This document shows, piece after piece, positions 8,987-63,815 of a stretch of 64,000 bases of DNA. The position numbers and the translations under genes are program-made. The stretch comes from Acidobacteriota bacterium (lineage in GTDB: Bacteria; Acidobacteriota; JAAYUB01): positions 20,427 through 84,426 of the forward strand of contig JAGOHA010000003.1 in NCBI GenBank assembly GCA_017996395.1. The letters are read 5' to 3'. The notes below the pieces were generated by a model. It saw only the letters and a list, made by a program, of their open reading frames with translations, was not told the DNA's origin and made no database searches. Numbering within the stretch: the first letter of the stretch is position 1; every line of letters starts with the position of its first letter.

Positions 8987-8991
8987 ACGGT

Positions 8992-11254: not shown

Positions 11255-11755
11255 TCACATCTTGTACTGACCGAGATCCTCCGGAGAGAGTCCCTCGAGC
11301 CATTTCTTCAGGTCGTCCTCCGACCATTGCTGCTTGTCGGCGATGGAGAAGCTCCTGGACTTCCGGATGACATCCTCGGCGACATACACCGGCGCCCCGA
11401 CCCGGATGGCGACGGCCAGTGCATCGCTGGGCCGGGAGTCCACGACCTGGAGCTGGTTGTTGAACCGAATGTGAAGCTCGGCATAGTAGGTGCTGTCCAC
11501 CAGGTCCGTGATCACCACCTTTTCGAGCACGGCGGAGAGCTTCGACAGAATGGAGCGGATCAGGTCGTGGGTCATGGGGCGCGGGGCTTCGATATGCTCC
11601 ATCTCCAGGGCGATGGCATTGGCTTCGAAAACGCCGATCCAGATCGGCAGCACCGTGGTTTCGGCGGTGTCCTGCAGGATCACCACCGGCGAGTTGTTCA
11701 CCGGATCCAGGATCAGCCCTTTGATGAAGAATTCGATTTGCCGGATCTTGTCCAT
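11255..11755 (-). CDS. Bifunctional nuclease (BFN/DUF151) domain protein
   Basis: ILDPVNNSPVVILQD...LPIWIGVFEANAIALEM is typical of the DUF151 family. Confidence 0.55.
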   Translation of the reverse strand: MDKIRQIEFFIKGLILDPVNNSPVVILQDTAETTVLPIWIGVFEANAIALEMEHIEAPRPMTHDLIRSILSKLSAVLEKVVITDLVDSTYYAELHIRFNNQLQVVDSRPSDALAVAIRVGAPVYVAEDVIRKSRSFSIADKQQWSEDDLKKWLEGLSPEDLGQYKM

Positions 11756-11800
11756 GGCGTCCGCCTATGACTGGTTTGATGATAGCACACCGGGGGTGAT

Positions 11801-30796: not shown

Positions 30797-30968
30797 GCCG
30801 ACTCCGCATGTTAGCATGTTGATATTCAATAGTTTCTGCATTATCCCATTGTCTGGTGGACCTGTCAAACCCAAAAGACCCTTTATAGACCTGCCCCACC
30901 CGGTCGGCGAACTTTCATGTTGCAATCCATCTGTAATTCCAGTATGTTGGCCACTTGTCGAGGACATC

Positions 30969-31628
30969 ATGCTTTCATTCACGCGAACCATCGGCGCCGG
31001 CGGGCAATTCCTGCTGACCAAACTGACATCCGCTCTCGGGCGAATCAAGGTCAATCCCAACCTGATCACTTTGTTGGGTTTTGTCATCAATATCGTAGCC
31101 GCTTTTTACCTTTCCAAGGGCCAATTCGGCATCGCCGGCACCATCATCTTCATCGCCGGCGCCATGGACATGCTGGACGGCGCGGTGGCCCGTTTGACGG
31201 GGACGGCAACGAAATTCGGCGCATTCTTTGACAGCGTCATCGACCGTTACTCCGATATCGTGCTCTACCTGGGCCTGATCATTTACTTCGGCAAGATGCC
31301 GCGAATGACCTACGTGGTTCTGGTGGGGATCTGCATCATGGGCTCCATGATGACCAGCTACACCCGAGCCCGCGCCGAAAGCCTGATCGATAAGTGCAAG
31401 GTGGGATTTCTGGAACGCCCGGAGCGCGTGGTGCTACTGATCCTGGGCACCTGGTTCTACCGCGTGGAACACGTGCTGTGGGTGATTGCCGTTCTGTCCA
31501 ACTGGACAGTCATCAGTCGCATCATCTTCACCTGGATGGAGCTGTCCAAGGTGAACATCCTGATGCCCATCACTCCGTCATTCCAAACCGAGAACCCCGT
31601 CGAGCAGAAGCATCCCATCGAGTGCTGA
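30969..31628 (+). CDS. CDP-alcohol phosphatidyltransferase family protein
   Basis: DMLDGAVARLTGTATKFGAFFDSVIDRYSD matches D-G-x2-A-R-x8-G-x3-D-x3-D. Confidence 0.7.
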   Translation: MLSFTRTIGAGGQFLLTKLTSALGRIKVNPNLITLLGFVINIVAAFYLSKGQFGIAGTIIFIAGAMDMLDGAVARLTGTATKFGAFFDSVIDRYSDIVLYLGLIIYFGKMPRMTYVVLVGICIMGSMMTSYTRARAESLIDKCKVGFLERPERVVLLILGTWFYRVEHVLWVIAVLSNWTVISRIIFTWMELSKVNILMPITPSFQTENPVEQKHPIEC

Positions 31629-46698: not shown

Positions 46699-47985
46699 AT
46701 GATGCCCACCACTCGTCCTCAATTCCCGCTCATGCGAAAGCTGCTGGAGGAGGCCGACCTTTCCCTGGAAGTCGTCGTCCTGCTCATCTTCGGAGCGTTC
46801 TTGCTCCTGTTCGGCATCCTCCTGGCGCCGATACATACGGGGATCGTGCCATATAGCCCGGACGGCACCTACGGGCTTTTCCTGGTGCTCGTCTCCTTTC
46901 AGATGATCGCGATGGGTAAGACGCCTTTCGGCGACCTGCGCCGCTCCTGGGCCGCGGTTGCCGGCGGCATGGCCGTTGCGGTCCTGGGCATGTCCCTCTG
47001 TTTCATCCCGGGTTTCCTTACGGGCTTCGCCCGATGGCTGGTCGGATTCGTGCTAACAGCAGGCGGGTTATCCCTCTTTCTGCAGCTGTTGATGGCCCGC
47101 GAGAAGGGGCGGCGGTGGATGGCCGGGCCCGGGATCCTGAAATCGCTCGCTGTCTGTAGTGGCGCGGTATACCTGCTGTTGGCTGCCCTGGGGCTGATCA
47201 CCTTGTGTCCCGGGGCCGTCTCGGACTACGTGACCGCCGGGACCCTCGTCGCCACCGGACTCGGCCTCCTGTCCCTGGCCGGGATTATTCAGCAGATCAT
47301 CCGACGGTGGCCGGAAGCGGATCAGCATCCGACGTTGAAAGGAGTGGCCGTTGCAGAAGATGCGAGGAAAACCCGGAGAGGGCTGTTCGGGGAAGCCAAC
47401 CTCTCTCTCTCGCTGGCGACACTTCTTCTGATGGGAGTCCTGCTGACTCTCCTTGGATTGGTCCTGATACCCGTCAATCTGGGATGGATCCCCTTCTCGC
47501 CCGATGGCTTGCAGGGTCTCCTGCTCACTCTCTTCGCCATCCAGATGATGTCGCTGGGAGACTCTCCGATCGGCCATTACCGGCGGTCGTGGCTGATGGT
47601 CTCCTACGGCATCGCCTTCGTCGGCCTGGGTGCATTCTCCTGCATCGCGCCGGGGGTGCTCACTAGCGTCCTCCGGGCCCTCCTCGCCGTATTGAACCTC
47701 ACGGCCGGGGGCCTTTACTTCGCCAGGCGGCTCCGCCAGAGGATCAAGGAGAGGAAGACCCCGCCGGCAGATCCTCTCCCGCCCATCGTCACCCGGTTGT
47801 TCCGCACGCAGGCGGCGCTGAACATCGCCGTCATCGCGTTCGGAGTCAACATGCTCGTGCCAGGGCTCCTGCCGGGCTTCGTGAATGCTGTGATTATCGT
47901 CGCCAACGGGTTGCTGCTCTTTCAACTGGCCTTCCTCCTGATGATACTGGAGCAAGAGGCGACGCCACGCGATTGCGGATCATGA
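46699..47985 (+). CDS. Polytopic membrane protein of unknown function with an internal tandem duplication (2 x about 5 TM)
   Basis: Repeat 1 ...LLAPIHTGIVPYSPDGTYGLFLVLVSFQMIAMGKTPFGDLRRSW... versus repeat 2 ...LVLIPVNLGWIPFSPDGLQGLLLTLFAIQMMSLGDSPIGHYRRSW... Confidence 0.5.
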   Translation: MMPTTRPQFPLMRKLLEEADLSLEVVVLLIFGAFLLLFGILLAPIHTGIVPYSPDGTYGLFLVLVSFQMIAMGKTPFGDLRRSWAAVAGGMAVAVLGMSLCFIPGFLTGFARWLVGFVLTAGGLSLFLQLLMAREKGRRWMAGPGILKSLAVCSGAVYLLLAALGLITLCPGAVSDYVTAGTLVATGLGLLSLAGIIQQIIRRWPEADQHPTLKGVAVAEDARKTRRGLFGEANLSLSLATLLLMGVLLTLLGLVLIPVNLGWIPFSPDGLQGLLLTLFAIQMMSLGDSPIGHYRRSWLMVSYGIAFVGLGAFSCIAPGVLTSVLRALLAVLNLTAGGLYFARRLRQRIKERKTPPADPLPPIVTRLFRTQAALNIAVIAFGVNMLVPGLLPGFVNAVIIVANGLLLFQLAFLLMILEQEATPRDCGS

Positions 47986-48210: not shown

Positions 48211-49209
48211 ATGCCCCATATCCCTATGAAATACGCGCCGCAGCTGATCTGGCACGGGACGCGGAACTTTTTTTCGGGCCGCCCGGTGGTCATCTCCTTT
48301 GAGACCACCCTCTCCTGCAACGCCAACTGCCGGCATTGCGACATCGAGGGCCACCGCCCTGACGAGGAACGCATGAAACCGGAGGGCTTCCGGAAATTCA
48401 TCGACCAGTTCCACCCGCCGGTGGTCCAGTTGTCCGGCGGCGAGCCGCTCCTCCGGGACGACCTGCTCGATGTGGTTCGGGCCGTCAAGATCAATCCCTT
48501 CTTTCCCTACACTATCCTGGTTTCCAACGGCTCGCTCATGACGCTGGAGCGCTATCGGGCGTTCCGCGAAGCGGGGGTGAACCAGTTCTCCGTTTCGCTG
48601 GATTTTCCCGATTCCCGCCATGATGACTTCCGCCTGATTCCCGGCTTGTACAACATCTTGAACGAGGTGATCCCGCAACTGGCCGCTGAAGGCCACGGCG
48701 ATGTGGTGCTCAACACCGCCATCACCTCGGCGAATGTCGGCGAGCTTGAACCCATCATCCGGACGGCCGACCGCTGGGGTGTTTGCCTGAGCTTCAGCAT
48801 CTACACGCCGCTCCGCACCCAGAATCCCGAGTACGTCGTGAGCAAAGCCGAAGACCTCGACGCCGTGGAGCAGCTGTTTGCGCGTTGCAAGCGGCGCCAG
48901 GGCGTCTATCGCCGGGTGGTGAACTCCCATTACAACCTGGATGGCATCATGCGATTCATGCGCGAGGGCAACATCCCCAACTGCAGCGCCGGCATCCGGT
49001 TCATGGTGGTCCGACCCGAGGGCAAGCTGAACCCCTGTTCACTCCAGCGGATCAATTTCGATACCCAGGATCAATTGGCCCGGGAATTTTCCGCCCACAA
49101 CACCTGCGGCGGCTGCTATGTGTCGATCCGATCATACGTCGAGATCTCGTTCGCTCAACTGTTGTGGGAAAACATCTCGATGCGGGTTTTTAACAGGAAT
49201 ACTATGTGA
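48211..49209 (+). CDS. Radical SAM enzyme with a C-terminal SPASM/twitch-like Cys cluster
   Basis: CNANCRHC (CxxxCxxC), the GGEPLL motif, C-terminal Cys residues (CSAGI...C...CGGCY). Confidence 0.65.
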   Translation: MPHIPMKYAPQLIWHGTRNFFSGRPVVISFETTLSCNANCRHCDIEGHRPDEERMKPEGFRKFIDQFHPPVVQLSGGEPLLRDDLLDVVRAVKINPFFPYTILVSNGSLMTLERYRAFREAGVNQFSVSLDFPDSRHDDFRLIPGLYNILNEVIPQLAAEGHGDVVLNTAITSANVGELEPIIRTADRWGVCLSFSIYTPLRTQNPEYVVSKAEDLDAVEQLFARCKRRQGVYRRVVNSHYNLDGIMRFMREGNIPNCSAGIRFMVVRPEGKLNPCSLQRINFDTQDQLAREFSAHNTCGGCYVSIRSYVEISFAQLLWENISMRVFNRNTM

Positions 49210-51606: not shown

Positions 51607-52965
51607 TCAGGCGTCGGGTTTGTCGCCGGAGGGAGCGCCCACGCCCCCCTTCCGAAGCAGGATGAACAGCCAGTACCCCAAACCGATCACCAACGCCAGA
51701 ATCACAGCGATGAGCACCGTCCGTTCCACCTGTTCCCGGCGGGAGGCGCCCGCCTGGGGGTCGTAGTCAGGATTGCCGGAGACCGCTCCCATGGTAACCT
51801 GGGTACGGGCCTGATCGGCCCAGGCATCGCTGCCGCCAAAACGATCAATGTCGTAATTGGGGGCGCGGACCGAACGGGCGCCCACCATCAGCCGGTACGG
51901 TTGCCGATCGTTGTCAGCCACGAAGAAAATCTCCCGGGTCGGGCTTTCAAATGACAGGGAACGGATTTCCAGTGGCGGGCTGTCGCCATTTTCTATGGCG
52001 ATCCGGTACTGCGCGATACCGGTACCCGGCAGATCCAGATGCAACCGTCGCTCCGGCCGACCGCCCAGCGGGAATGCGCAGATGGTGCCGCTGGCGAAGG
52101 GTTGCCAGCTCCCATCACGGCCGTTCGGGCTGCTTTCAACGGCCACCGTGCGGTAGAAAACCGGCGTGGTCACGTCGAACTGAATCCGACCGGCGGGAAG
52201 GCGCACGGGAATATCGATCACCGTCTGCCGGCTGGCATTCTGAACGGCCGGCACGGGCCGCAGCGGCCAGCGGTCGATGCGGGGGCCTCCGGGTTCCTCC
52301 TGCACCGATCGTCCATGGACGGCGTCGATTCTAAGCTGCTTCGCCCAGCTTCGACTGAAGATGATCTCCAGCCCCGTGGCGGTCACCTGTACGGTGTCAC
52401 GGTTCTCCGGCGCCGCTTCAGAATCCGTGATCCGCAGAACCAGCGCTCGCGCATCGGTGGCGGGAAAATCCACCCGAGTTCGCCGCAGGTCTACGTGAGA
52501 TGAAAAGTCATAAATTGTGTCCTGGCCGATAACGGGGCCGGCTGGATCGTTCGCGATCACCGTGACCTGTTTCCGGAAGTCTCGTTCCGGGATCGTGAAA
52601 TCGATCCCGCTCACGGCGCCTATCGCCTCAGGCACCGTGACGGTCAGCTGAACACTCCCCCTGCTATTTTCGTAGCTGGTGATTGTGAGGGGGGCTTCGG
52701 TTATCTTGGGCTGCAGACGGCTGAAACGGACGACGAATGGAATTTCGCGCCCGTCGGCGTCATACAGACGCATGTCCGCCAGATTGGATTCGCTGCGGGT
52801 CAACAGCTCCAGCGGGAGCGGGATTCGGCAGATGGCGTGCCGCCGGATTGCGCCCCGGATTTCCGCCTGGTATTTGAACTGCTCCACAGTGGGGCTGTCA
52901 ACCTGGGCCATCGTCGCTCCGGCGGCGATCGCCAGCCACACCCCCAACAGCTGATGCCGGCTCAT
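51607..52965 (-). CDS. DUF3999-like protein (signal peptide, C-terminal TM)
   Basis: Starts MSRHQLLGVWLAIAAGATMA. The 940-aa track ORF extends upstream in an artefactual frame. The start overlaps the DUF2339 stop by ATGA. Confidence 0.5.
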   Translation of the reverse strand: MSRHQLLGVWLAIAAGATMAQVDSPTVEQFKYQAEIRGAIRRHAICRIPLPLELLTRSESNLADMRLYDADGREIPFVVRFSRLQPKITEAPLTITSYENSRGSVQLTVTVPEAIGAVSGIDFTIPERDFRKQVTVIANDPAGPVIGQDTIYDFSSHVDLRRTRVDFPATDARALVLRITDSEAAPENRDTVQVTATGLEIIFSRSWAKQLRIDAVHGRSVQEEPGGPRIDRWPLRPVPAVQNASRQTVIDIPVRLPAGRIQFDVTTPVFYRTVAVESSPNGRDGSWQPFASGTICAFPLGGRPERRLHLDLPGTGIAQYRIAIENGDSPPLEIRSLSFESPTREIFFVADNDRQPYRLMVGARSVRAPNYDIDRFGGSDAWADQARTQVTMGAVSGNPDYDPQAGASRREQVERTVLIAVILALVIGLGYWLFILLRKGGVGAPSGDKPDA

Positions 52966-54935
52966 GGTTGTCCCTCCGGTTTGTCCGCATCCGGCCGAGG
53001 CCCCAGGAGCACTTCCTTGTAGCGGTGGTAAAGGTACGACACGCCGACAAGCAACAACCCCAGGACAAAGCATGAAATGATGCGGTAGGGGGTTTTCACT
53101 TCGGCCATGTCCCAGATGAGCACCTTGAGGATCGTCAGGCTGAACAACGCCAGCGACAGCCGACGCAGCGACGGCCGGTTCCACCGGAAACCCAGCAGCA
53201 TGAGCATCACCGAGTACAAGCTCCAGAGCACCGACACCGCAGCAAACCGCCCGGTGGGCAGATAGTCGTAGAAAAACGCGTTGACTTCCAGGTTCAGCAC
53301 GCCGAACAGCAGCACGCTCCAGCCGATTGCGGCCAGGACGGCCAGCGTGTTGCGCAGCGCCTGATGCTCCGGGCGTGGCAGGTAGTACTTGACCAGCCGG
53401 TAAAACAGGATCGTCAGCCCGATGACCACCGCGGCGGACAGCCAGCGGTCCACGGCGCAGCTCATGTAACCGGCCGGGAAACAGAGGCTGTCCAGATCCA
53501 GATCGAAATTGTCGAGATAATCCCAGAGCAGCAGCTTGCCGCCGGCCAGAGTCAGCACACCCGCGCCGGCGAGCTGCAAGGTGGGGCGTCCCAGCCGCAG
53601 TCCCATCCACAGAAGCGCAACCGCCTGGGCCGCCCAGAACACGGTGATCCAATGTTCCGAGAAAATGATGGGCACGGTGATGAACAGAAACAGCATCGCC
53701 TTGGCCAGCAGCACGACGAACGCGCCCACACTCCGCTGGCCCCGCCGCTCCAGAAAGGCGGCCAGTGCGAGGAAGATGAACGCGTACGTCACCGATACAA
53801 CGCTGGCCCAGATACCGTCCGAACGGTCGGCGATGAGCCCATAGCTCACGCTGAAGGCCAGCAAGGAGTTCGGCGTGATGATCAGGAAGCCCCACAGTCG
53901 ATCGATCCGGCCTCGGAAGCACTGGTAAGCGAAGGGCATCAGGGTGTAGATGAGGTAGAAGATGTTTAGGAAAATGATTGCGGGCCAGAACTTCGACGCA
54001 TTGTAGTGGGTGACACCCCAGGCGAAGTAGGTGATGTACGTGAAGATGAAGCCCAGGGCGTTCAGCAAGGCCCACTGCTTGCGGAAGGCGATGACCAGGA
54101 GGCCCAGGTTCAGGACCGTAAGGTAGGTCATCAGGGCGATCTGGTTGTCCTGGCCGGTGCTGAGCAAGAGTGGGGTCAGAAAACCGCCGATCATCGCCAG
54201 GGCCGCCAGCCACTTGTTGTCGTAGACCACTGCCAGGGCACAGCCCAGCGCCGTGATCAGGACCATCACGCCAAAGGCAAGGGCCTGTCCGAACAGCTGG
54301 TAGATCTGGAAACCGGCGAACGTCGCGAAATAGAGGACCGCCACGCCGCCGCCCGCCAGACAGAGCCCGAAAACCCGGTAGCCCCGACGGCGGAAGAGCT
54401 CTCCCGCTCCGAGCAACCCGATCCCCCACAGAAACGCCAGTGCGACCCGGCCGGCCGGACCGATCCAGGCCCGGTCAAAGGAGTATTTCAGAAAGTACCC
54501 CACCGCCAGCACGATGATGATCACTCCGATGGCCAGGATCCACTTCTGACCCAGGCGAACCTCCATCTCCGGCGCCCGGGCGACGGTGCGCGGCGCCTGT
54601 TGCGGGGGGACGGTTGGCGCCGGAGCCGGCTCTGTTTTCGGCTGCTGCTCCGCTGCGGCGGATCGGACTGCGGCGAGCGTCCCGGCTGCCTGAGATTCGG
54701 GCTGAGGTTCGACCGGCGTGGCCACCAGATGCTCGCTCAAAGCCGTGACGCGACCATCGAGCTGGTCCAGATTCTCCCACAACCCGCGGACCTGCTTTCG
54801 GACGACCTGCAGCTGTTGCCGCAGTTCCTGAAAAGCCCGAGCCCGCTCCAGTTCGTCATCCGAAAACCTGTGGCCGCACTGCATGCAGTGCCGGGCCAAT
54901 TCGGCGATGCTCGCATGACATTGGGGGCACTTCAC
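52962..54935 (-). CDS. DUF2339-like polytopic membrane protein with an N-terminal zinc ribbon
   Basis: MKCPQCHASIAELARHCMQCGHRF (CxxC...CxxC), coiled coil, Pro/Ala linker, then about 20 TM helices. Confidence 0.55.
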   Translation of the reverse strand: MKCPQCHASIAELARHCMQCGHRFSDDELERARAFQELRQQLQVVRKQVRGLWENLDQLDGRVTALSEHLVATPVEPQPESQAAGTLAAVRSAAAEQQPKTEPAPAPTVPPQQAPRTVARAPEMEVRLGQKWILAIGVIIIVLAVGYFLKYSFDRAWIGPAGRVALAFLWGIGLLGAGELFRRRGYRVFGLCLAGGGVAVLYFATFAGFQIYQLFGQALAFGVMVLITALGCALAVVYDNKWLAALAMIGGFLTPLLLSTGQDNQIALMTYLTVLNLGLLVIAFRKQWALLNALGFIFTYITYFAWGVTHYNASKFWPAIIFLNIFYLIYTLMPFAYQCFRGRIDRLWGFLIITPNSLLAFSVSYGLIADRSDGIWASVVSVTYAFIFLALAAFLERRGQRSVGAFVVLLAKAMLFLFITVPIIFSEHWITVFWAAQAVALLWMGLRLGRPTLQLAGAGVLTLAGGKLLLWDYLDNFDLDLDSLCFPAGYMSCAVDRWLSAAVVIGLTILFYRLVKYYLPRPEHQALRNTLAVLAAIGWSVLLFGVLNLEVNAFFYDYLPTGRFAAVSVLWSLYSVMLMLLGFRWNRPSLRRLSLALFSLTILKVLIWDMAEVKTPYRIISCFVLGLLLVGVSYLYHRYKEVLLGPRPDADKPEGQP

Positions 54936-55061: not shown

Positions 55062-55100
55062 AAAAAAAGGGCAGCCTGGATTCAGGCATGCCCTGTAAAA
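55062..55100 (-). terminator. Rho-independent terminator downstream of tRNA-Phe (minus strand)
   Basis: Minus-strand read AGGGCA-loop-TGCCCT followed by TTTTTTTG. Confidence 0.55.
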
Positions 55101-55103
55101 GGA

Positions 55104-55179
55104 TGGTGCCGAGGGACGGAATTGAACCGCCGACACAGGGATTTTCAGTCCCCTGCTCTACCGGCTGAGCTACCTCGGC
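55104..55179 (-). tRNA. tRNA-Phe (anticodon GAA), CCA encoded
   Basis: Reverse complement GCCGAGGTAGCTCAGCCGGTAGAGCAGGGGACTGAAAATCCCTGTGTCGGCGGTTCAATTCCGTCCCTCGGCACCA: 7-bp acceptor stem, anticodon loop CTGAAAA, T-loop GGTTCAATTCC. Confidence 0.9.
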
Positions 55180-55398
55180 CACCGCTTCGAAGCGATATCG
55201 CCAAACCCAAAGAACCGAGCGAAGGGCTGGATTATAAAGACGCCTCCGGGCCCTGTCAACTGCTTTTTATCCCGCCGTCATGTTCGGGCGCACATGCAGA
55301 TCACGGCAGGGACGGGATTTACCATCTTCGCCGTCGGCAAAACGGATTGCAATTCGACACCCCATCTGCTAGATTGAACTGCTTGACAGGAAGCGCAC

Positions 55399-56073
55399 AT
55401 GTACAAGGGCAACCGGATCACGGTGGTCATCCCGTGCCTCAATGAAGAGGAAGGGATTCCGCTCGTCCTGAAACAGATTCCCAACTTCGTGGACGAGGTC
55501 CTCGTCGTCGACAACGGTTCCACCGACCGGACCGCCGACATCGCCACCTCCTTTGGCGCCACGGTCATCCAGGAAAGCATCCGCGGGTATGGCCGGGCTT
55601 ACAAGACCGGTCTGGCCAACGCCCAAGGGGATATTATCATCACCCTGGACGGCGACCATTCCTACCCTGTGGACGCCATTTCGTATCTCATCGAGGCCCT
55701 GCTCCACTCCGGCGTCCGCTTCGTCTCGGCCTCACGGTTTCCGGTACAAAATCCCGAAGCCATGTCCTTCAAGCACAAATTCGGCAACATCGTGCTCAGC
55801 CTGTGCCTGTCGCTGCTCTACTTCCGCTGGGTGCGCGATTCGCAGTCGGGCATGTGGATCTTCTACCGGGAAATCCTGAAGCAGTTCCGGCTCCGCAGCG
55901 ACCTGATGGCGTTCTCGGAAGAGATCAAGATCGAGGCCATTCGCAACCGGGAAGTCGGATTTCGGGAGATCCCCATCAACTTCTCGAACCGGATGGGCGA
56001 AATCAAACTCCAACCGTGGCGAGACGGTTTCCGCAACCTGCTGTTCCTGTTCCAGAAGCGGTTCCGGCCGTGA
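55399..56073 (+). CDS. GT2-family glycosyltransferase (polyprenyl-phosphate sugar synthase-like)
   Basis: ITVVIPCLNEEEGI...VLVVDNGSTDRT...TLDGDHSY (GT-A DxD region). Confidence 0.75.
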   Translation: MYKGNRITVVIPCLNEEEGIPLVLKQIPNFVDEVLVVDNGSTDRTADIATSFGATVIQESIRGYGRAYKTGLANAQGDIIITLDGDHSYPVDAISYLIEALLHSGVRFVSASRFPVQNPEAMSFKHKFGNIVLSLCLSLLYFRWVRDSQSGMWIFYREILKQFRLRSDLMAFSEEIKIEAIRNREVGFREIPINFSNRMGEIKLQPWRDGFRNLLFLFQKRFRP

Positions 56074-57044
56074 ACACACCGCCGCCAGCATGCCCGATCT
56101 GCGGGGCCGCGGACTCCTGCCGCTGGCTGGAGAACTCCGATTTCCTGTTTCACACGTCGCCCGTCGTCCACACCCTGCACCGCTGTCTGTCCTGCCGATG
56201 CGCATTTCTGCACCCCATGCCGGAACCCCGGGCGCTCGCGGATGCCTATCCGCGCCCCTACTGGTGGATCGCCCAGGACCGGCCCCGGGGCCTGTCGCAC
56301 AAGCTGGAGACGGTCTACCGGGAGGCGGTGTTGCGCCATCACGTCCACGTGGCTCGACGGCATCTGGCGGGGTCCGCGCCGAAAGTCCTCGATGTGGGCT
56401 GCGGCAGCGGCACCTTTCTCCATGTGCTGCGCCGGGTGACCGGCGTCGCGGGCGAAGGGCTCGACGCCTCGCCCGATGCCGCCCAGGCGGCCCAGGCTGC
56501 TTACGGGCTCCGGGTGCACGTCGGCGACATCGACACCGCCGATCTGCCCGAGCAGGGCTACGACCTTATCACGCTGTTCCATGTGCTGGAGCACCTGCCG
56601 CAACCCGGTGACGCGCTGAGCCGCGTCGGCCGGTGGCTGGCGCCCGGCGGCACCCTGCTGCTGCAGGTCCCCAACCTGGACAGCTGGCAATGCCGCTGGT
56701 TCGGCCGGCGCTGGAGCGGCCTGGACATCCCCCGCCACGTGGTGGGCTTCCAGCCGCACGCCATGGCCGACCTGCTTCGCCGGATCGGTTTCGAGCCCGG
56801 GCCGCCCCGGTTTTTCTCGCTGCGCGACAATGCGGCGGCGATCGCCACGTCGCTGGCCCCCGCCCTGGACCCCGTAGCTATGGCCGTCCGCGGCGACAAC
56901 CGCTTGGCGATTGCACGAAAAGTGTTATACTTCGCCCTGTTGGCGGCCGCGCAGCCACTGGCCCTGCTGGAGGCGATGGCCGCACGCGGCGGCACATTCT
57001 TCCTGCCGGCCCGCCGGATCATGACCCCACGGAGTCACGCATGA
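56070..57044 (+). CDS. Class I SAM-dependent methyltransferase with N-terminal Cys4 zinc-ribbon-like motifs
   Basis: GTG start overlapping the upstream stop. CPICG...C...CLSCRC, then VLDVGCGSGTFL (motif I) and ...LLLQVPN... Confidence 0.65.
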   Translation: MNTPPPACPICGAADSCRWLENSDFLFHTSPVVHTLHRCLSCRCAFLHPMPEPRALADAYPRPYWWIAQDRPRGLSHKLETVYREAVLRHHVHVARRHLAGSAPKVLDVGCGSGTFLHVLRRVTGVAGEGLDASPDAAQAAQAAYGLRVHVGDIDTADLPEQGYDLITLFHVLEHLPQPGDALSRVGRWLAPGGTLLLQVPNLDSWQCRWFGRRWSGLDIPRHVVGFQPHAMADLLRRIGFEPGPPRFFSLRDNAAAIATSLAPALDPVAMAVRGDNRLAIARKVLYFALLAAAQPLALLEAMAARGGTFFLPARRIMTPRSHA

Positions 57045-57568
57045 GCCAGATGCATCACATCAATATCGTTTTCACGGGTGGAACCATCGAAAAAATCTAC
57101 GACGAAGTTCAGGGCGGCATCGACAACATCGAAAGCTGGATCGACCGTGAATTCCCGCCGCTGCGTCTCCCCTATGTCCGGCTGCATTCGCTGCGGCTCA
57201 TGAACATCGACAGCCTCCAGATGACCGACGAGCACCGCCAAGTAATCGCCCAGACCATCCAGCGCCTCCAGGAAGACGGTCGTCCCATCGTCCTCACCCA
57301 TGGCACGGACACCATGGTGGACACCGGACGCTACATCAAGTCGCATCTGTCGCAGATCAAGGTCCCCATCGTCCTGACCGGCGCCATGCTGCCGCTGGTG
57401 GTGCAAAACAGCGACGGCATCCAGAATCTCACCGAAGCGCTCTTCGCCACGAAATTCCTCCCCCCCGGCGTCCACATCGTCTTCCACAATGAGGTCTACG
57501 ACGTGGACCGGGTCCGCAAAAATCGCCAGGCCAAAACCTTCGAACGGATTGAAAACGGCGGGAAGTGA
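57041..57568 (+). CDS. Standalone L-asparaginase N-terminal-domain-like protein (about 175 aa)
   Basis: IVFTGGTIEK (asparaginase GGTI nucleophile motif) and LTHGTDTMVDTG (HGTDTM motif). No asparaginase C-domain follows. Confidence 0.55.
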   Translation: MSQMHHINIVFTGGTIEKIYDEVQGGIDNIESWIDREFPPLRLPYVRLHSLRLMNIDSLQMTDEHRQVIAQTIQRLQEDGRPIVLTHGTDTMVDTGRYIKSHLSQIKVPIVLTGAMLPLVVQNSDGIQNLTEALFATKFLPPGVHIVFHNEVYDVDRVRKNRQAKTFERIENGGK

Positions 57569-57943
57569 TCAGTCCTTGGCCGGCGGCTCCTCGCCTCCTA
57601 AAGGCGATCGGTATTCCAGTCGGGCTTCCAGCAAGGCCAGCCTCTGGGCCAGCACCTGGTTCTGACGGGTCAGCTTGGACATCGCCAGTCCCTGGTGCAG
57701 CATGATCGCGAACAGGAACAGGATCGCCAGATAGAACACGAGCGATGGCGGATAGTAGATGCCCACCAACTGAGCCAGCCGGTTCAGCCAGCCTTCCGAA
57801 AGGATGAGCACCTGGATGCAGACGATGGCCGCCAGCCACAGGAGGGAGTACTTCTCCTTCAGTTTTTCCCGCCGGAGGAAGTGGATGATGGCCAGCAGGA
57901 GCAGGCCGTTGATCACTGTGGTGAAGATCTGGACGAACGTCAT
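57569..57943 (-). CDS. DUF2304-like small membrane protein (partner of GT2 polyprenyl-phosphate sugar synthases)
   Basis: 3 TM and a C-terminal coiled coil; sits immediately downstream of a GT2 gene, as in the known GT2/DUF2304 pairs. Confidence 0.45.
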   Translation of the reverse strand: MTFVQIFTTVINGLLLLAIIHFLRREKLKEKYSLLWLAAIVCIQVLILSEGWLNRLAQLVGIYYPPSLVFYLAILFLFAIMLHQGLAMSKLTRQNQVLAQRLALLEARLEYRSPLGGEEPPAKD

Positions 57944-57957
57944 GCGGCACCTCCGGC

Positions 57958-58668
57958 TCAGTAGCGGATCATATCGATCAAGATGGCCAGCGTTACCTTG
58001 ATCATGTAATACCCGGATCGCAGAAACGTGATCGACGACATGCCGGCGGATCGCTCGCGCATGGTCACCGGCACCTCGTCGACGCACATCTGCCATTTAT
58101 ACAGCATGATGATGACTTCGGGCTCCGGATAGTCGTCGGGGTAAAAGCGGCAGAGGCGCTGCATGGCCCGGCGGCTGTACAGGTGGAACCCTGACGTGGC
58201 GTCGGTCACCCGGAATCCCGTCAGCGCCCGGATCAGGCGGCAGAGGAAACCGATGGCCAGCCGCCGCAGCCAGGAGGATTGGAAACCGGCGCGGGAGAGA
58301 AAGCGGGAACCGACCAATAGGTCCACCGGCTGCCGGCGGATATGATCGAAGAAGCGGTGGATGTCGCTCGGATCATGCTGGCCATCACCGTCCAGGCGGA
58401 GCACCCAGTGGAATCCTTCGGCCAGCGCGTAAGCGATTCCGGTCTGGATGGCGGCGCCGATTCCCATGTTGAACGGCAATGTGACGACGACCGCCTCGTG
58501 GGCACGCGCCACCGCGGCGGTCCGGTCGGCGGATCCGTCGTCGATCACCAGCAGAGTCGCGGCGGGAAACTCGCGGTGGAGTTCGTCCAGGACAGCGCCG
58601 AGATTGCCCTCCTCGTTGTATGCGGGGATCAGAAAGAGCACTTCCCGGAGATCGAACGGCCGGTTCAT
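57958..58668 (-). CDS. GT2-family glycosyltransferase (DPM-synthase-like)
   Basis: VLFLIPAYNEEGNL...LLVIDDGSADRT...LDGDGQHDP. Start chosen at MNRPF (58668) rather than the track start at 58887. Confidence 0.7.
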   Translation of the reverse strand: MNRPFDLREVLFLIPAYNEEGNLGAVLDELHREFPAATLLVIDDGSADRTAAVARAHEAVVVTLPFNMGIGAAIQTGIAYALAEGFHWVLRLDGDGQHDPSDIHRFFDHIRRQPVDLLVGSRFLSRAGFQSSWLRRLAIGFLCRLIRALTGFRVTDATSGFHLYSRRAMQRLCRFYPDDYPEPEVIIMLYKWQMCVDEVPVTMRERSAGMSSITFLRSGYYMIKVTLAILIDMIRY

Positions 58669-59669
58669 CGCCGCATCCTCCCGCGGCTCCCCTGCCCGCC
58701 CCGGAGGCTTGGCGTCAGGAAGCCGAGCACCCACCCTGACATTCGCGCAAACGCCCGGAGCGTGAACACGGTCAGGCCGAGAGGCCACAAACCGAATTCC
58801 CGCGCCTCGCGGGCGACGCCCGTCGCGGCCCACCCTTCGAGCAGCAGGAGGGCGCCGGTGGCGCCACCCGCCGCCCAGCCGGCCCACGGCACGCCGGCCG
58901 CGGCCGACAGGGCGGCTCCGGGGATCACCAGCGCCAGCGCGACGTCCAGCATGTCTCGCGGCCGGGTGTAGTCATCGCCGGACACGAAGGCTGGATGCTT
59001 GCGGTACAGCCGGCTCCGCCAGAAGCCGTGGATGTATTGCGTGCGGAGATACCCCCCGATCCGTTCCGGATGGTGATGAGCCACCCGGCAGCCGGGACGG
59101 AAGGCGATCCGGTAACCGGCGTGACGGATGCGGTACGACAGGTCGTTGTCCTCGGCGCTGGCGGTTGGGAATGACTCGTCGAAGCCGCCTACCTGTTCCA
59201 GCACGGTGCGCCGCACCGCCAGGTTGTAAGTGCCGCCGGCCCTCACGAACGCGGGCATCCGCCGGTGGCGGAAGGCAATCTCGGCCTGGATGAGCCGGGC
59301 CAACGGTCGCTCACCGTTGGCGGCCGCGTAACTGCCGGCCACCGCCCCCACGTCAGCGGCTTCCAGGCCGTCGACCATGCCGGCAACCCATCCGGGCGGC
59401 GGGATGCAGTCGGCATCGGTGAAACAGATCACTTCACCACCAGCCCGGCGCCAGCCGGTGTTCCGGGCGGCGGCGGGGCCGCGGTTCGGCTGCCGGATCA
59501 GCGTGACGCCTCGCCGGCTGATGCGCTCCGCCGTATCGTCGGTGGACCCGTCGTCCACCAGCACGAGCTCCAGTTCGTGCCCGCCCGATTCCAGCCGCTG
59601 GAGTGCATCGAGCGTTCGCTCGATATAGCGGGCGCTGTTGAAACATGGCACCACGACCGAAACGTTCAT
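58665..59669 (-). CDS. GT2-family glycosyltransferase with a C-terminal membrane anchor
   Basis: VSVVVPCFNSARYI...LVDDGSTDDT...FTDADC. Start chosen at MNVSVV, about 59669. The longer 634-aa track ORF overlaps the upstream gene in another frame. Confidence 0.65.
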   Translation of the reverse strand: MNVSVVVPCFNSARYIERTLDALQRLESGGHELELVLVDDGSTDDTAERISRRGVTLIRQPNRGPAAARNTGWRRAGGEVICFTDADCIPPPGWVAGMVDGLEAADVGAVAGSYAAANGERPLARLIQAEIAFRHRRMPAFVRAGGTYNLAVRRTVLEQVGGFDESFPTASAEDNDLSYRIRHAGYRIAFRPGCRVAHHHPERIGGYLRTQYIHGFWRSRLYRKHPAFVSGDDYTRPRDMLDVALALVIPGAALSAAAGVPWAGWAAGGATGALLLLEGWAATGVAREAREFGLWPLGLTVFTLRAFARMSGWVLGFLTPSLRGGQGSRGRMRR

Positions 59670-61105
59670 GGCCGGCGCCTCCCCCGCAGGCGCTCCAGGT
59701 TGTAGCGCAGGTAGCTCCACGCACCGTAGGCCTTGCGCCGGACGTCCCCCCAGGAACGCACCGCCGTGAGCATCCGGAGCAGCTGGCGTGGCCGCAGGTA
59801 GAATTCGCGCAGGCCGCGGTCGATCAACTCGTCGATCTCCGACTTCGACAACTGCGGATAGCTCAGCAGAGTGACCTGTTCGCCGTCGGCGCTGATCCAC
59901 TCCGTCCAATCCTGCGGCACCAGGAAGCCGTTCTCGACAGCCCAACGGTACATCTCGGTGCCCGGATAGACGCAGATTCCCGAAATCTGGATCGTGTCCA
60001 GCGGCAGCCGTTTGGCGAACGCGATGGTCTGGAGGGCAGACTCCCGGGTTTCGCCAGGCGCACCCACCATGAAACAGCCGTGGACGATGAAGCCCAGCTC
60101 GTGCGCCCGGCGCGCGAACGCCTCGCTCTGTTCCAGCGTCACGCCCTTGCGAACGGCGTCCAAAGCGGCCTGGGTGCCGAATTCGAATCCCGTCATGAGC
60201 ATCCGGCAACCGGCGCGCCGCATCAGCGGAAGCAGTTCCAGGTCCATGTCTACCCGGGCATTGCAGCTCCAGGCGATCCGGATGCCGCGACGCAGGATCT
60301 CCTCGCACACGCCGGCGACGTGGGGGCGAGAGGCCACGAAGGTGTCGGTTTCGAACATGATCTCGCGCAGTCCGGGAAACAGCGACAGATCGTGCGCGAT
60401 CTCGTCCACCACCAGTTCCGGCCGGCGCATGCGCAGACGGTGCCCCACCATGAGCTGGGGATCCTGGCAGAAGGTACATCGCGCGAAGCAGCCCCGCCCT
60501 GACAGGAGCGTGAGAAAGGGATACAACTTGCCGGCGTCGCGGTACCACTCCGGTCGCACGTGACGCCACGCCGGAAACGGCAATTCGTCCACGTCCAGCG
60601 GCGGCGGCAGCGGGTTGTGCACCACCCCGCCGTCGCCGGTGAAGGAAATTCCGGCTATGCTCATATCATCCGGCCGGTCGGCCAGTTCGCGCAGGATGAA
60701 ATCGTATTCGCCCCGCACGATTCGGTCCACCGCCCCGGCCGCGATCCGGAAGCTGTCGTCCGGCTCGGCCGAGACGTGGTTGCCCACCAGCACTGTGAAC
60801 GCCCCGGAGCGTTCCTTGATCGACCGGGCCAGGCTGATGTCGCTGTATATGGATGGCGTCGTGGTGTGCAGCACGGCCATATCCGGCCGGAATGCGTCCG
60901 CCGCTTCCCGGATGTCCGCCGGTTTCAGATTGAGGGCAGCTCCGTCTATGAATCTCAGATCGTGTCCCGCCGCCTCCAGGACGGCCGTGGCGACGAGCAG
61001 GTAATCGGGATGGCGCTGGACGCGTCCGCGGGAACGCGCCGCCCAGCGGGCCGAGCGGACGAAATCGTCCATGAACGGAGGATTCAGGATCAGGATTCTG
61101 GCCAT
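59666..61105 (-). CDS. Cobalamin (B12)-binding-domain radical SAM enzyme (class B)
   Basis: N-terminal B12-binding-like Rossmann region (ARILILNPPF...), radical SAM motif GCFARCTFC (CxxxCxxC). Confidence 0.65.
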   Translation of the reverse strand: MARILILNPPFMDDFVRSARWAARSRGRVQRHPDYLLVATAVLEAAGHDLRFIDGAALNLKPADIREAADAFRPDMAVLHTTTPSIYSDISLARSIKERSGAFTVLVGNHVSAEPDDSFRIAAGAVDRIVRGEYDFILRELADRPDDMSIAGISFTGDGGVVHNPLPPPLDVDELPFPAWRHVRPEWYRDAGKLYPFLTLLSGRGCFARCTFCQDPQLMVGHRLRMRRPELVVDEIAHDLSLFPGLREIMFETDTFVASRPHVAGVCEEILRRGIRIAWSCNARVDMDLELLPLMRRAGCRMLMTGFEFGTQAALDAVRKGVTLEQSEAFARRAHELGFIVHGCFMVGAPGETRESALQTIAFAKRLPLDTIQISGICVYPGTEMYRWAVENGFLVPQDWTEWISADGEQVTLLSYPQLSKSEIDELIDRGLREFYLRPRQLLRMLTAVRSWGDVRRKAYGAWSYLRYNLERLRGRRRP

Positions 61106-61176
61106 GCGGTGCCATTATAAACCGGCGCGCCCGCGTCACCCAAGGCCATTCGTCTGCGGCGGCCTGCATTCCGGAC

Positions 61177-61337: not shown

Positions 61338-61475
61338 ATGAAACGGACATTTCAACCCAACAATAGACGCCGCGCCAAAACCCACGGTTTCAGGGCCCGG
61401 ATGGCCACCAAGGGCGGACGGAAGGTGCTGGCCCGACGCCGGGCGAAGGGCCGCCAGCGGCTGGTGTGCAGCTGA
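61338..61475 (+). CDS. rpmH: 50S ribosomal protein L34
   Basis: [45 protein letters not shown]; absent from the ORF track because it is under 60 aa. Confidence 0.9.
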
Positions 61476-61846
61476 CCGTGATTTTCGATCCGGATCACAC
61501 GTTCACCCGATATCATCGGATCCGCAAGCAAACAGAGTTCTTGGCGATATACGAACAGGGTTGCAAACTCGATTCGGCCCTGTTCGTTTTGTATTACACG
61601 ACCAACCCGTTTGCGTACCACCGCCTGGGCACCACGGTATCCCGCAAGATCGGAGGGGCTGTGGTGCGCAACCGGGTGAAGCGACTGTACCGGGAGATGT
61701 TCCGGAAGAACAAACCGTTGGGGGAACCCCACTTCGATCTGGTGCTCAACGCGCGCAAGGCTTCGGCGACGGCCACCTACGCCGCACTGGAGCGTGAGTA
61801 CCGGTTGAAACTGGAGCGGCTGCCCCTGCAGGATGTGCCCAAGTGA
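61466..61846 (+). CDS. rnpA: Ribonuclease P protein component RnpA
   Basis: Follows and overlaps rpm[14 protein letters not shown]...[25 protein letters not shown] is typical of RnpA. GTG start. Confidence 0.8.
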
Positions 61847-62097
61847 TCCGAACCGCGCTCGTCGCCGTGCTGACCGCCTACCAACGGATCGTGTCCCCGC
61901 TGCTGCCGCCCGCTTGCCGGTTTCATCCCACCTGCTCCGAATACTTCCGGCAGGCCGTGCTGGCGCACGGCGCCCTGCGCGGCAGCTGGCTGGGCGTGCG
62001 CCGGCTGGCCAAGTGCCACCCATTCCACCCCGGCGGATTTGATCCCGTGGATCCGGGCGAATTCCGCTCCATGGAGTCCCGATGGAAAAACGTCTGA
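61843..62097 (+). CDS. yidD: Membrane protein insertion efficiency factor YidD
   Basis: [31 protein letters not shown] is the YidD signature. Confidence 0.8.
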
Positions 62098-63815
62098 TTC
62101 TGGCCATCATTCTGTCCGTCGTCATCCTGGTCGCCTATCAGATGATCTTCGTTAAAACGCCGCCGCCGACTCCGGCGATGCCTCCGGCCCAGACAGGCCA
62201 GGCGGGACCATCGAAGCCGGACACACCGCCTCCCGCCGCGGCGTCAGCCCCCCAGCCCGAGGCGCCCGTGATGGACACCGCCCCGGCGGCACCGGCGATT
62301 CCTGAAACTCAGGCGGAACCGCGCACGGTCACCATCGACTCCGACCACTTCACTGCCCGACTGGACAACCGCGGCGCGGTGCTCCGCAGTTTGGTCCTCA
62401 AGAAGTATCACGAGGACGGCGAAGGCGGTGTGGAGCTCATCCCCTCCGTCCTGCCGCCCGATTTCGGCTCCTTTCTCTCGCTGTACCTGCCGTCCCAGCC
62501 AGACCTGGAAACGGAGCTCGCCCGCCTGGTCTACCAAGTCGATGAGGAGACCGTCACGGAGGACCGGCGCAGCATCCGCCAGGTTCGCTTCACCTACCGC
62601 CGGACCAACCTGGAGGTGGAAAAACGCGTCAGTTTCCCCTCGGATTCACCGTATGTCATCGGCGTGCAGTGCCGGGTGGTTTACCGCGGCCAGGCAATAG
62701 CGCCGCTGGTGCAGATCGGTCCCGGGCTGACCGAGCACGACCTGGTGCCCGCCGAACAGTACCAGACGCCGCCGCAGATCATTTATTTCGATGGCGGCAG
62801 CACGTCGACCCTGGACGGGCCGAAGGTCAGCGACGAGAAGGACGGCGAGCAAATGATCCGGGGCAGCCTCAAGTGGGCCGGCGTGCAAACCAAGTTCTTC
62901 GCCGCCCTGGCCATGGGCGCCTTCCCCGAGATCCGAACGACCAACCGCGTGTGGTCCCACACCGCGAAGGACGGCGCAGCCAAGACGGCCCACGTCGTCT
63001 CCGTCTTCTTTCCCGCCGGATCCAACGCAGCCACGATCCCCGTCTACTTCGGCCCCAAGTCATATGACATCATGTCGGGCATCTCGAACGACCTGGCCCA
63101 GGCCATCGATTTCGGCTGGTTCGGCATCATCGTCAAGCCGCTCTACTATGCCCTGCGCTGGCTCAACCAGTACGTGAGCAACTGGGGCTGGTGCATCGTG
63201 ATCCTGACCTTCTTCATCACCCTGGCCCTGTTTCCCATCCGCTTCTTCCAGATGAAGAGCATGAAGCAGATGCAGAGGATCCAGCCGCAGATGAAGGCTA
63301 TCCAGGCCAAGTACAAGGGCTCCAAGTCGGCCGAGGACCGCCAGAAGATGAACATGGAGATGATGCAGCTTTACAAGGAGCACGGCGTCAACCCCATGAG
63401 CGGCTGCCTGCCCATGGTGGTCCAGATCCCCTTCCTCATCGCCTTCTACAACCTGATCGACAAGTCCATCGAGTTCTGGCGGCAACCCTTCGTGTTCTGG
63501 CTCAAGGACCTGTCCGCGCCCGACCCCTACTGGATCACGCCCGTCGTCATGGGCCTGACCATGATCATCCAAATCAAGCAGACTTCGGCCACATCCCCCG
63601 CGCCGGACAGCAAAGTGCAGCAGGCCATGATGACCTACATGATGCCGGCCATGATGACCTTCTTCTTCCTCAACATGTCCAGCGGCCTCGTGGTCTATTT
63701 CCTGTTCAGCAACGTGTTCGCCTGGCTCATGCAGAAGGCCGTGGAGCAATTCCTCCCGTCCGGCGAACCGGTCAAAGGGAAAAAGGCGAAAACCAAAAAA
63801 GCCGTCACGCGGTGA
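62082..63815 (+). CDS. yidC: Membrane protein insertase YidC
   Basis: N-terminal TM, periplasmic domain, conserved C-terminal core (GWFGII...[11 protein letters not shown]...[17 protein letters not shown]). Confidence 0.9.

Follow-up and report, generated by a model that had tools for sequence, protein, structure and literature searches.

A seven-gene acidobacterial block predicted to build modified lipid-linked sugars, and the widespread radical SAM-glycosyltransferase pair within it

Among described systems, two kinds come closest to the subject of this analysis, a seven-gene block at positions 55399-61105 of a 64,000-nucleotide window from an Acidobacteriota bacterium (contig JAGOHA010000003.1, positions 20,427 to 84,426, forward strand), the window being the whole stretch of DNA that was analysed. 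In the first, exemplified by GacI/GacJ of Streptococcus pyogenes and PpgS/Rv3632 of Mycobacterium tuberculosis, a DUF2304 protein with three transmembrane (TM) helices comes after a family 2 glycosyltransferase (GT2) of the Dpm1/PpgS type, and GacJ and Rv3632 bind and stimulate their GT2 partners, which are polyprenyl-phosphate-N-acetylhexosamine synthases. GacL and Rv3779 are reportedly GT-C transferases that stand alongside these pairs. In the second, the hopanoid pair HpnI/HpnJ, a membrane GT2 gene lies directly beside one for a protein of about 475 amino acids (aa) with a cobalamin (B12)-binding domain and a radical S-adenosylmethionine (SAM) domain. HpnJ is a non-methylating ring-contraction enzyme of hopanoid glucosamine (PMC9204698), and its proposed substrate is a lipid-linked sugar (PMC9204698, PMC13459092); hits to the HpnJ model above its cutoff have been reported only in SHC- and HpnH-positive genomes. 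Three further enzymes bear comparison. For Cds, the calditol synthase of Sulfolobus acidocaldarius and likewise a radical SAM enzyme, it has been proposed that a lipid-linked hexose is turned into a five-membered carbocycle by ring contraction; this is chemistry of the kind that we propose for the window's enzyme, the likeness being one of description rather than of sequence comparison. MoeK5 of moenomycin biosynthesis, which like the window's enzyme is a class B radical SAM protein and lies in the same broad similarity-network neighbourhood as HpnJ, reportedly C-methylates the first sugar on the lipid carrier. AprD4, the 1,2-diol dehydratase of apramycin biosynthesis, is a non-methylating, aminosugar-acting radical SAM enzyme whose substrate is a soluble pseudodisaccharide and whose N-terminal domain is said not to bind cobalamin.

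The block consists of two convergent operons (Table 1). The plus-strand operon encodes a GT2 (GT2a), a methyltransferase (MT) and a protein of the asparaginase N-domain type (AsnN), and the minus-strand operon a B12-binding radical SAM protein (rSAM), two further GT2s (GT2b and GT2c) and a DUF2304 protein. All seven open reading frames (ORFs) are present, and Pfam confirms every domain named in the initial annotation of this DNA, whose view of a glycoconjugate locus with GT2s of the polyprenyl-phosphate-sugar type is borne out by the best match of GT2c, PpgS, and by the adjacent DUF2304 gene. Unlike the GacI/GacJ and PpgS/Rv3632 systems, the block adds rSAM, a second and membrane-bound GT2, a third GT2, MT and an asparaginase. 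It would work like a donor synthase of the GacI/GacJ type joined to a lipid-sugar tailoring pair of the HpnI/HpnJ type, while matching neither at equivalog level.

It is most likely that the block builds modified lipid-linked sugars for the cell envelope. The best account of the whole, which we regard as plausible but slightly short of probable, is that three modules modify the envelope with sugars and that rSAM and GT2b carry out an HpnJ-like rearrangement of a lipid-linked sugar. All three modules would work on the cytoplasmic side of the membrane. GT2c and DUF2304 would make a polyprenyl-phosphate-sugar, as GacI/GacJ and PpgS/Rv3632 do, and GT2a would make a second polyprenyl-phosphate-hexose; the zinc-ribbon MT would probably O- or C-methylate a sugar, with AsnN co-translated with GT2a and MT. 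Membrane-anchored GT2b would glycosylate a membrane-bound acceptor, and rSAM would then transform the lipid-linked sugar of GT2b by radical chemistry, through a carbon-skeleton rearrangement, the contraction of a pyranose ring to a cyclitol-type unit, rather than through C-methylation. Flipping and transfer of the products would fall to GT-C enzymes whose genes lie elsewhere. Gene content, domain identities, the modular structure, conservation and the closer kinship of rSAM with HpnJ are direct results of the analysis; the substrates, the reaction type, the link between the modules and the final acceptor are all points that we infer. The more specific proposal that rSAM-GT2b is the equivalent of HpnI/HpnJ (and of archaeal Cds) outside hopanoid synthesis, with a wide distribution, and converts a lipid-linked hexose to a carbocyclic cyclitol-type unit on a polyprenyl or membrane-lipid carrier, is offered as a tentative possibility and is on the unlikely side. 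The main interest lies in this pair, uncharacterised and present in both domains of life, more than in the seven-gene block.

A class B radical SAM enzyme related to HpnJ

The architecture of rSAM is that of class B (cobalamin-dependent) radical SAM enzymes, with a B12-binding domain above the Pfam cutoff (PF02310, 35.7 bits against 32.1) and a radical SAM domain (PF04055, 70.7 bits) whose cluster motif, C206/C210/C213, is invariant in 41 sequences. Its best NCBIfam model is HpnJ (TIGR03471; 347.4 bits, E=1e-103, residues 3-472 against positions 2-470 of 472), and it has the HpnJ layout of an N-terminal B12-binding domain, a radical SAM core with CxxxCxxC and a length of about 470 aa; with an equivalog cutoff of 577.6 bits, this score places rSAM outside the HpnJ family proper. 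Far lower scores are reached by the BchE model (113 bits) and by all remaining models, of which a lipid-biosynthesis B12 radical SAM model comes to 94 bits, none higher, and those annotated as methylases to at most 80 bits. In pairwise comparison, a radical SAM protein from a Lawsonia plasmid scores 316 bits, annotated HpnJ proteins 249-256 bits (the 256-bit alignment running end to end at 32% identity, E=2e-84), and a putative MoeK5, picked by gene order only from a moe-like cluster on Streptomyces clavuligerus pSCL4, 136 bits (29% identity). We note that in this pSCL4 locus (L177, 1416-9290) unannotated genes for an epimerase, an Asn-synthase-like protein, an unassigned protein, a second Asn-synthase-like protein and a B12-type radical SAM protein follow one another in an order that presumably resembles that of the moenomycin cluster, moeE5-F5-GT1-H5-K5.

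A neighbour-joining tree places rSAM in one tight clade, to which annotated HpnJ and the Lawsonia plasmid protein are nearest among the sequences obtained. Its members are 54-91% identical and are spread over more than ten phyla of Bacteria and Archaea, including Acidobacteriota, Latescibacterota, Nitrospirota, Nitrospinota, Elusimicrobiota, Planctomycetota, Omnitrophota, Sumerlaeota and Bacteroidota, together with Brachyspira catarrhinii, DPANN archaea (Undinarchaeales and Nanoarchaeota) and one Asgard metagenome-assembled genome (MAG). Most are bacterial and derive from MAGs of anoxic sediment, groundwater and bioreactors, whereas Cds homologues reportedly come mainly from acidophiles; databases call them 'radical SAM protein' or mislabel them as BchE or YgiQ. 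Unlike HpnJ, the clade is found in Omnitrophota, Elusimicrobiota, DPANN archaea and Brachyspira, and judged by this taxonomic spread it is not restricted to SHC- and HpnH-positive genomes. When 1.84 billion cluster representatives were searched with rSAM, 3,945 clusters were recovered at E<=1e-30, and about 50 uncharacterised clusters (50% identity) scored above the level of HpnJ, which is therefore the closest characterised relative and not the closest relative. The AlphaFold2 (AF2) model of rSAM (mean predicted local distance difference test score, pLDDT, 89.6) matches AprD4 best in the PDB (TM-scores 0.70/0.74), followed by TsrM, MgmA, OxsB, CysS and TokK, and AprD4 (PDB 6FD2) also ranks first among solved structures when sequences are compared (E=8e-16, 20-21% identity); the structure searches did not separate reaction types.

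The initial annotation had expected a class B enzyme to methylate an unactivated carbon. That expectation is weak for rSAM, whose nearest characterised relative is the non-methylating HpnJ, and ring contraction of the HpnJ type is favoured over C-methylation because HpnJ is clearly the closer relative, both against the putative MoeK5 in pairwise score and against the methylase-annotated models in NCBIfam; AprD4, which heads the structural matches, does not methylate either. On these comparisons, rearrangement is a likelier activity of rSAM than methylation. The main rival retains the same lipid-linked-sugar pathway and makes rSAM a cobalamin-dependent C-methyltransferase of an unactivated sugar carbon, as MoeK5 is. 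Most characterised class B radical SAM enzymes are methylases, the B12-binding domain of rSAM is above its Pfam threshold, TsrM, MgmA, CysS and TokK are among its structural neighbours, and the methyltransferase-rich clusters described below suggest heavily methylated products. Published similarity networks place HpnJ itself beside Fom3 and MoeK5, which are methylases (PMC9204698), and sequence does not tell class B methylases apart from the non-methylating HpnJ, BchE and OxsB. We consider methylation by rSAM a real possibility, and one with the balance of evidence against it.

Two other identities for rSAM were considered. That it is a true hopanoid HpnJ is rejected on the grounds that its score is below the family cutoff, that GT2b is not HpnI, that HpnK is missing, and that the clade occurs in phyla outside those listed as common hopanoid producers; that such phyla do not produce hopanoids is an assumption. 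Profiling of the ORFs at 40-64 kb of the window and of ten large ORFs elsewhere in it revealed no hpnI/hpnK, shc or hpnH gene. That it is the archaeal methylase Gmm of glycerol monoalkyl glycerol tetraethers, or a methylase of branched glycerol dialkyl glycerol tetraethers, is disfavoured by taxonomic distribution and gene context rather than by sequence comparison.

Partner genes, modules and conservation of the block

GT2b is predicted to be a membrane-anchored GT2 and the conserved partner of rSAM. It has a C-terminal hydrophobic region, and its residues 3-282 align with PDB 6YV7, deposited as 'Glycosyl transferase, family 2', which we take to be a membrane GT2; its NCBIfam matches, to MftF (167 bits, E=5e-49, cutoff 280), EpsD (121 bits) and HpnI (36 bits), are all below cutoff. 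A GT2b orthologue (39-86% identity) lies within 10 kb of rSAM in 21 of 38 loci, the window's own included, when the Omnitrophota-like loci treated below are set apart; a DUF2304 gene is also present in 14 of the 38, and 15 carry one to four extra radical SAM paralogues. Stand-alone rSAM-GT2b pairs, adjacent or overlapping, occur at L016 (Acidobacteriota), L045, L048 (Sumerlaeota) and L065 (Nitrospirota), and in two DPANN loci (L031, L033) the order is a small GT2, GT2b and rSAM.

Larger clusters surround the clade elsewhere. An Elusimicrobiota locus carries PMT_2 (GT-C), GT2, DUF2304, two rSAM genes, GT1, GT2b and MT; a Pirellulales locus carries rSAM, GT4, an epimerase, an NTP-transferase, a SPASM radical SAM protein, PMT_2, GT2b, GT2, DUF2304 and a second PMT_2; and a Nitrospirota locus carries YfhO, two GT2s, DUF2142, two rSAM genes, LPG_synthase_TM, MT, Alg14, Alg13, GT2b, GT2 and DUF2304. 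On Lawsonia plasmid 1, DUF2142, GT2, GalE, GT2, two DUF2304 genes, SIS, rSAM, MT and a second rSAM are found with GT2, HAD-IIIA and a GHMP kinase, with five MTs in total, and in Brachyspira catarrhinii (L056) an rSAM orthologue of 57% identity and a GT2 are followed by four or five class I MT ORFs, two of them short and perhaps one split gene. The initial annotation had thought a methyltransferase and a B12-type radical SAM enzyme unusual beside a GT2-DUF2304 pair; given that sets of rSAM, GT2, DUF2304, class I MT and GT-C genes recur in Elusimicrobiota, Nitrospirota, Planctomycetota, Lawsonia and Brachyspira, this does not hold. More distant rSAM homologues (28-31% identity) also lie in sugar clusters.

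Several side observations concern these clusters. Lawsonia and Brachyspira are both gut-associated, and their MT-rich clusters of rSAM and GT2 genes suggest heavily methylated sugars and, possibly, horizontal transfer. The Lawsonia locus (L089) is plasmid 1 of Lawsonia intracellularis (NC_008012), recorded as from a pig, and its SIS, HAD-IIIA and GHMP genes look like a heptose pathway. Up to five tandem B12-type radical SAM paralogues (21-30% identity to the window's rSAM) occur within one glycosyltransferase cluster at L014 (Elusimicrobiota, 4102-12110), L017, L020, L024 and L034. A gene for a protein with the lysylphosphatidylglycerol synthase TM domain (LPG_synthase_TM) is present both in canonical hpnI-hpnJ(-hpnK) operons (L090, 8177-9238; L091, 1726-2748) and in the related Nitrospirota cluster (L087, 8782-9759), and its product may be a flippase-like component common to the two.

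In the second module, the best NCBIfam model of GT2c is PpgS (NF058614; 107.8 bits against a cutoff of 370), which makes it a homologue and not an equivalog, and the adjacent, co-directional DUF2304 gene encodes a protein with three hydrophobic segments, presumed TM helices. GT2c and DUF2304 are predicted to form a polyprenyl-phosphate-sugar synthase pair of the GacI/GacJ or PpgS/Rv3632 type. Loci related to the window resemble those systems in carrying a GT-C transferase alongside, whereas the block itself has no GT-C gene.

In the third module, GT2a is probably a soluble GT2 of the Dpm1/AglJ polyprenyl-phosphate-hexose synthase type, an assignment at superfamily level, its best models being AglJ (114.3 bits, cutoff 325) and dolichyl-phosphate hexose transferase (109.6 bits, cutoff 375). 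No protein of the block is better conserved (83% identity in L001), and more than 530 relatives were found in metagenomes, the best 80 at 67-98% identity. An MT homologue lies directly 3' of these relatives in 19 of the 48 loci with enough downstream sequence, and the GT2a-MT pair is common in polysaccharide clusters; other neighbours, judged by eye from ORF translations without Pfam, include a rhamnosyltransferase-like GT2, GT4, a Wzt-like ABC ATPase and a GT-C-type membrane protein with tetratricopeptide repeats. MT has an N-terminal zinc ribbon, whose four cysteines (C8, C11, C39, C42) are invariant across 41 homologues, followed by a class I MT domain with the motif VLDVGCGSG at residue 106. 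This is the layout of the sugar C3-methyltransferases TcaB9 and KijD1, and KijD1, TcaB9 and MtmC are the best whole-architecture Foldseek matches of its AF2 model (pLDDT 93; TMq 0.56-0.58), at scores that generic MTs also reach; the generic TleD and MitM outrank KijD1 and TcaB9 by E-value. By sequence, TcaB9 matches MT at E=2e-4 over the SAM-binding domain only, the MftM model at a weak 22 bits (cutoff 200), and neither Methyltransf_13 nor Methyltransf_14, which we take to be the domains specific to the TcaB9/KijD1 family, was matched in the Pfam search.

The asparaginase N-domain assignment of the initial annotation can be made more exact, in that AsnN belongs to the RrA-type short-chain L-asparaginase family. 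In this family the protomer of 160-185 aa corresponds to the N-domain of class 1 enzymes only (PMC10949315). AsnN resembles RrA of Rhodospirillum rubrum (PDB 8UOO family) in size, aligns with it end to end (E=1.6e-21, residues 22-182 of 8UOO, PF00710 spanning AsnN residues 7-164) and keeps all of its catalytic and binding residues (T15, K18, Y20, D57/S58, T89, D90 and K160; the catalytic set in RrA numbering is Thr16/Lys19/Tyr21, Thr87/Asp88 and Lys158). No GT2-MT operon context has been described for RrA, whereas AsnN is translationally coupled to such an operon. The intact L-Asn site argues against a deacetylase role, and an HpnK- or ArnD-like deacylase of a lipid-linked N-acyl sugar is disfavoured for this reason and because most members of the family lie outside glycosylation loci.

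With regard to conservation, which the initial annotation had made a test of its view, the unit holds together in one acidobacterial lineage and not beyond it. The seven genes occur in the same order in six related Acidobacteriota contigs (L001/L002, L006, L007, L008, L097, L098). In the nearest genome, the Acidobacteriota MAG AnMBR.bin219 (L006), all seven proteins are 81-95% identical to those of the window, and L006, L097 and L098 are syntenic with it over about 48-64 kb. In the more distant Acidobacteriota L001, L007 and L008 (rSAM 76-78% identical, MT and GT2b 54-59%), tblastx of the window's 45-64 kb matches 55,395-61,119, 55,100-61,106 (reaching tRNA-Phe) and 55,375-61,136, respectively, and beyond the block yields only short scattered matches of 60-540 nt. 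Since order and orientation are kept in these three despite otherwise unrelated flanks, the block is, as judged by gene order, conserved as a unit, in this lineage only. Elsewhere its parts separate, at the stand-alone rSAM-GT2b loci listed above and at L094 and L101, which have GT2a-MT-AsnN without the minus-strand operon. The two convergent operons thus occur apart in other genomes, so that they need not share a pathway, and on its sequence the block is best described as a lineage-specific composite of three separable modules, rSAM-GT2b, GT2c-DUF2304 and GT2a-MT(-AsnN).

This modularity is the basis of an explanation that does without a single pathway, in which two or three independent modules became neighbours and AsnN is an ordinary L-asparaginase of nitrogen metabolism carried into the GT2a-MT operon. 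It accords with the separate occurrence of the modules, with the rarity of rSAM (3 of 41) and of AsnN (4 of 41) among GT2a-relative loci, with the full RrA set of L-Asn residues in AsnN, and with AsnN relatives of 51-54% identity in unrelated contexts. It sits poorly with the retention of gene order and of the convergent stop-to-stop layout, at protein identities down to 55%, in the three genomes with otherwise unrelated flanks, which argues for selection on linkage or for transfer as a unit; AsnN, moreover, is coupled to MT by an ATGA overlap and is retained in every copy of the block. This explanation we judge unlikely. That the block is one of the known O-antigen or capsule systems of defined product is rejected; in keeping with the initial annotation's suggestion of a product not described before, none of the seven proteins reaches any NCBIfam equivalog cutoff.

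The proposed rearrangement weighed

The proposed radical rearrangement of lipid-linked sugars has support from the domains and best family matches, the tight coupling of the genes, the conservation of the block and the position of the rSAM clade, all treated elsewhere in this text, and from further observations. The recurrent company of the rSAM clade includes polyprenyl-phosphate-sugar synthase pairs, GT-C proteins (PMT_2, YfhO, DUF2142), GT4, class I MTs, LPG_synthase_TM and nucleotide-sugar genes; the adjacency of rSAM and GT2b parallels that of hpnI and hpnJ; and the closest solved structure, AprD4, is a non-methylating radical SAM enzyme that acts on a sugar.

Other observations weigh against it, among them the free-standing GT2a-MT-AsnN trio, the clusters that score above HpnJ and the place of HpnJ beside methylases in similarity networks, all given above. 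For HpnJ itself the reaction was deduced from a knockout, and no reconstitution of it has ever been achieved (PMC13459092). GT2b is not an orthologue of HpnI, to which it is 29% identical over 118 aa, and the block contains no HpnK, YdjC or PIG-L deacetylase. Neither a GT-C transferase nor a flippase turned up among the ORFs profiled (those at 40-64 kb of the window and ten large ones elsewhere in it), so that transfer to the final acceptor must be encoded elsewhere. Lastly, at 46 Omnitrophota or 'uncultured Planctomycetales' loci (L010, L029 and L035-L085, rSAM lying around position 10001 of each) the rSAM orthologue, 54-64% identical, has no neighbouring glycosyltransferase in any case and no GT2b within 10 kb. 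There it is divergent from a gene for a 900-aa aconitase in 35 of the 46, and in 26 a 93-aa CxxC-rich protein, which by eye looks like a 2x[4Fe-4S] ferredoxin and may be the reductant of this type of rSAM, is encoded about 200 nt 3' of it.

These glycosyltransferase-free loci favour the view that the substrate of rSAM is a lipid hydrocarbon chain, as for Gmm, or some other membrane substrate rather than a sugar, its adjacency to GT2b reflecting a shared membrane-lipid theme. Gmm, a B12-type radical SAM enzyme that acts on lipid tails, is 31% identical to MoeK5, and the rSAM clade spans Bacteria and Archaea. Gmm is, however, overwhelmingly archaeal (15 of 990 bacterial) whereas the rSAM clade is mostly bacterial, no lipid-synthesis genes (tes, mss or plsA-like) were seen in the annotated rSAM neighbourhoods, and outside the Omnitrophota-like genomes GT2b is a frequent neighbour; we regard a lipid-chain substrate as quite improbable. 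A reading in which glycosylation and methylation by the locus are directed at a small redox cofactor or a natural product, as those by MftF and MftM are at mycofactocin, is scarcely credible, for the best match of GT2b to MftF and the weak one of MT to MftM both fall below cutoff, no precursor peptide or mftB/C/D/E-type gene occurs in the block or its relatives, and the recurrent GT-C and DUF2304 partners are typical of envelope glycosylation.

If rSAM-GT2b is indeed such an equivalent of HpnI/HpnJ outside hopanoid synthesis, carbasugar or cyclitol head groups or donors would be products of many uncultured anaerobic groups (Acidobacteriota, Nitrospirota, Elusimicrobiota, Planctomycetota, Omnitrophota and DPANN archaea) as well as of Brachyspira catarrhinii, a spirochaete in culture, and would amount to a so far undescribed kind of building block for envelope lipids or glycans. 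A product of this sort, if it is a distinctive and acid-stable lipid head group or glycan unit, might be used as a biomarker for the abundant uncultured phyla of sediment and groundwater. Even if rSAM is a methylase, what the locus defines would be a recurrent route to C-methylated lipid-linked sugars. Few cobalamin radical SAM enzymes are non-methylating (HpnJ, BchE, OxsB, PbsB and ladderane synthase), and before the in vitro work of the BchE preprint OxsB was the only one to have been isolated and mechanistically characterised (BchE preprint). A compact two-gene radical SAM-GT2 module in non-hopanoid organisms would be a simpler system in which to test sugar rearrangement of the HpnJ type. 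A literature search found no publication on this gene combination or on the rSAM clade.

Layout and surroundings of the block

The tight junctions described in the initial annotation proved to be ATGA overlaps at MT/AsnN, rSAM/GT2b and GT2b/GT2c. At the remaining two the picture differs: GT2a and MT overlap by GTGA, the GTG start of MT lying over the stop of GT2a, and GT2c and DUF2304 do not overlap, their 14-nt spacer containing GGAGG, a ribosome-binding site. The convergent stop codons of AsnN and DUF2304 abut in the palindrome TGATCA (57566-57571), which leaves no intergenic room for terminators, so that the transcripts of the two operons probably overlap.

Table 1. Genes of the block and other features of the window
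Feature	Position	Strand	Description
GT2a	55399-56073	+	224 aa; PF00535 E=1e-24; DGD at residue 84
MT	56070-57044	+	324 aa; Methyltransf_23 E=8e-27; GTG start
AsnN	57041-57568	+	175 aa; PF00710 N-domain only, E=5e-31
DUF2304	57569-57943	-	124 aa; PF10066 E=3e-22, 79 bits
GT2c	57958-58668	-	236 aa; PF00535 E=2e-25; DGD at residue 93
GT2b	58665-59669	-	334 aa; PF00535, PF13641, PF13506 (GT21-like); DAD at residue 85
rSAM	59666-61105	-	479 aa; PF02310 and PF04055; CxxxCxxC at 206-213
tRNA-Phe	55104-55179	-	flank on the GT2a side
Sigma-70 promoter	55231-55259	-	TTGACA, 17 nt, TATAAT
rpmH-rnpA-yidD-yidC	61338-63815	+	operon beyond rSAM
DUF3999 and DUF2339 genes	51607-54935	-	overlapping pair; DUF2339 membrane protein with N-terminal zinc ribbon
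Orphan radical SAM gene	48211-49209	+	332 aa; PF04055 only
Large ORF	46699-47985	+	428 aa; no Pfam match at E<=1e-3
Large ORF	3809-5590	+	593 aa; no Pfam match at E<=1e-5
Large ORF	28886-31090	-	734 aa; no Pfam match at E<=1e-5

No cobalamin or SAM riboswitch or other RNA element was detected in the block, the neighbouring tRNA-Phe being the only RNA found, and counts of consensus promoters and terminators were not clearly above those of shuffled sequence. The single perfect sigma-70 promoter sits directly upstream of tRNA-Phe. The rSAM ATG is preceded at 8 nt by a TATAAT that has no -35 element and whose position suggests a leaderless rSAM transcript.

In L006 and L007, too, the block is flanked by the tRNA-Phe gene on its GT2a side, which is not so in L001 or L008; in the window the DUF3999 and DUF2339 genes lie next to it. 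Divergent from rSAM is the rpmH-rnpA-yidD-yidC operon, which is usually found near the replication origin; cumulative GC skew drops monotonically over the whole window, with no switch seen. The orphan radical SAM gene has no recognisable partner genes, and at least two of the three unmatched large ORFs look membrane-associated by their N-termini.

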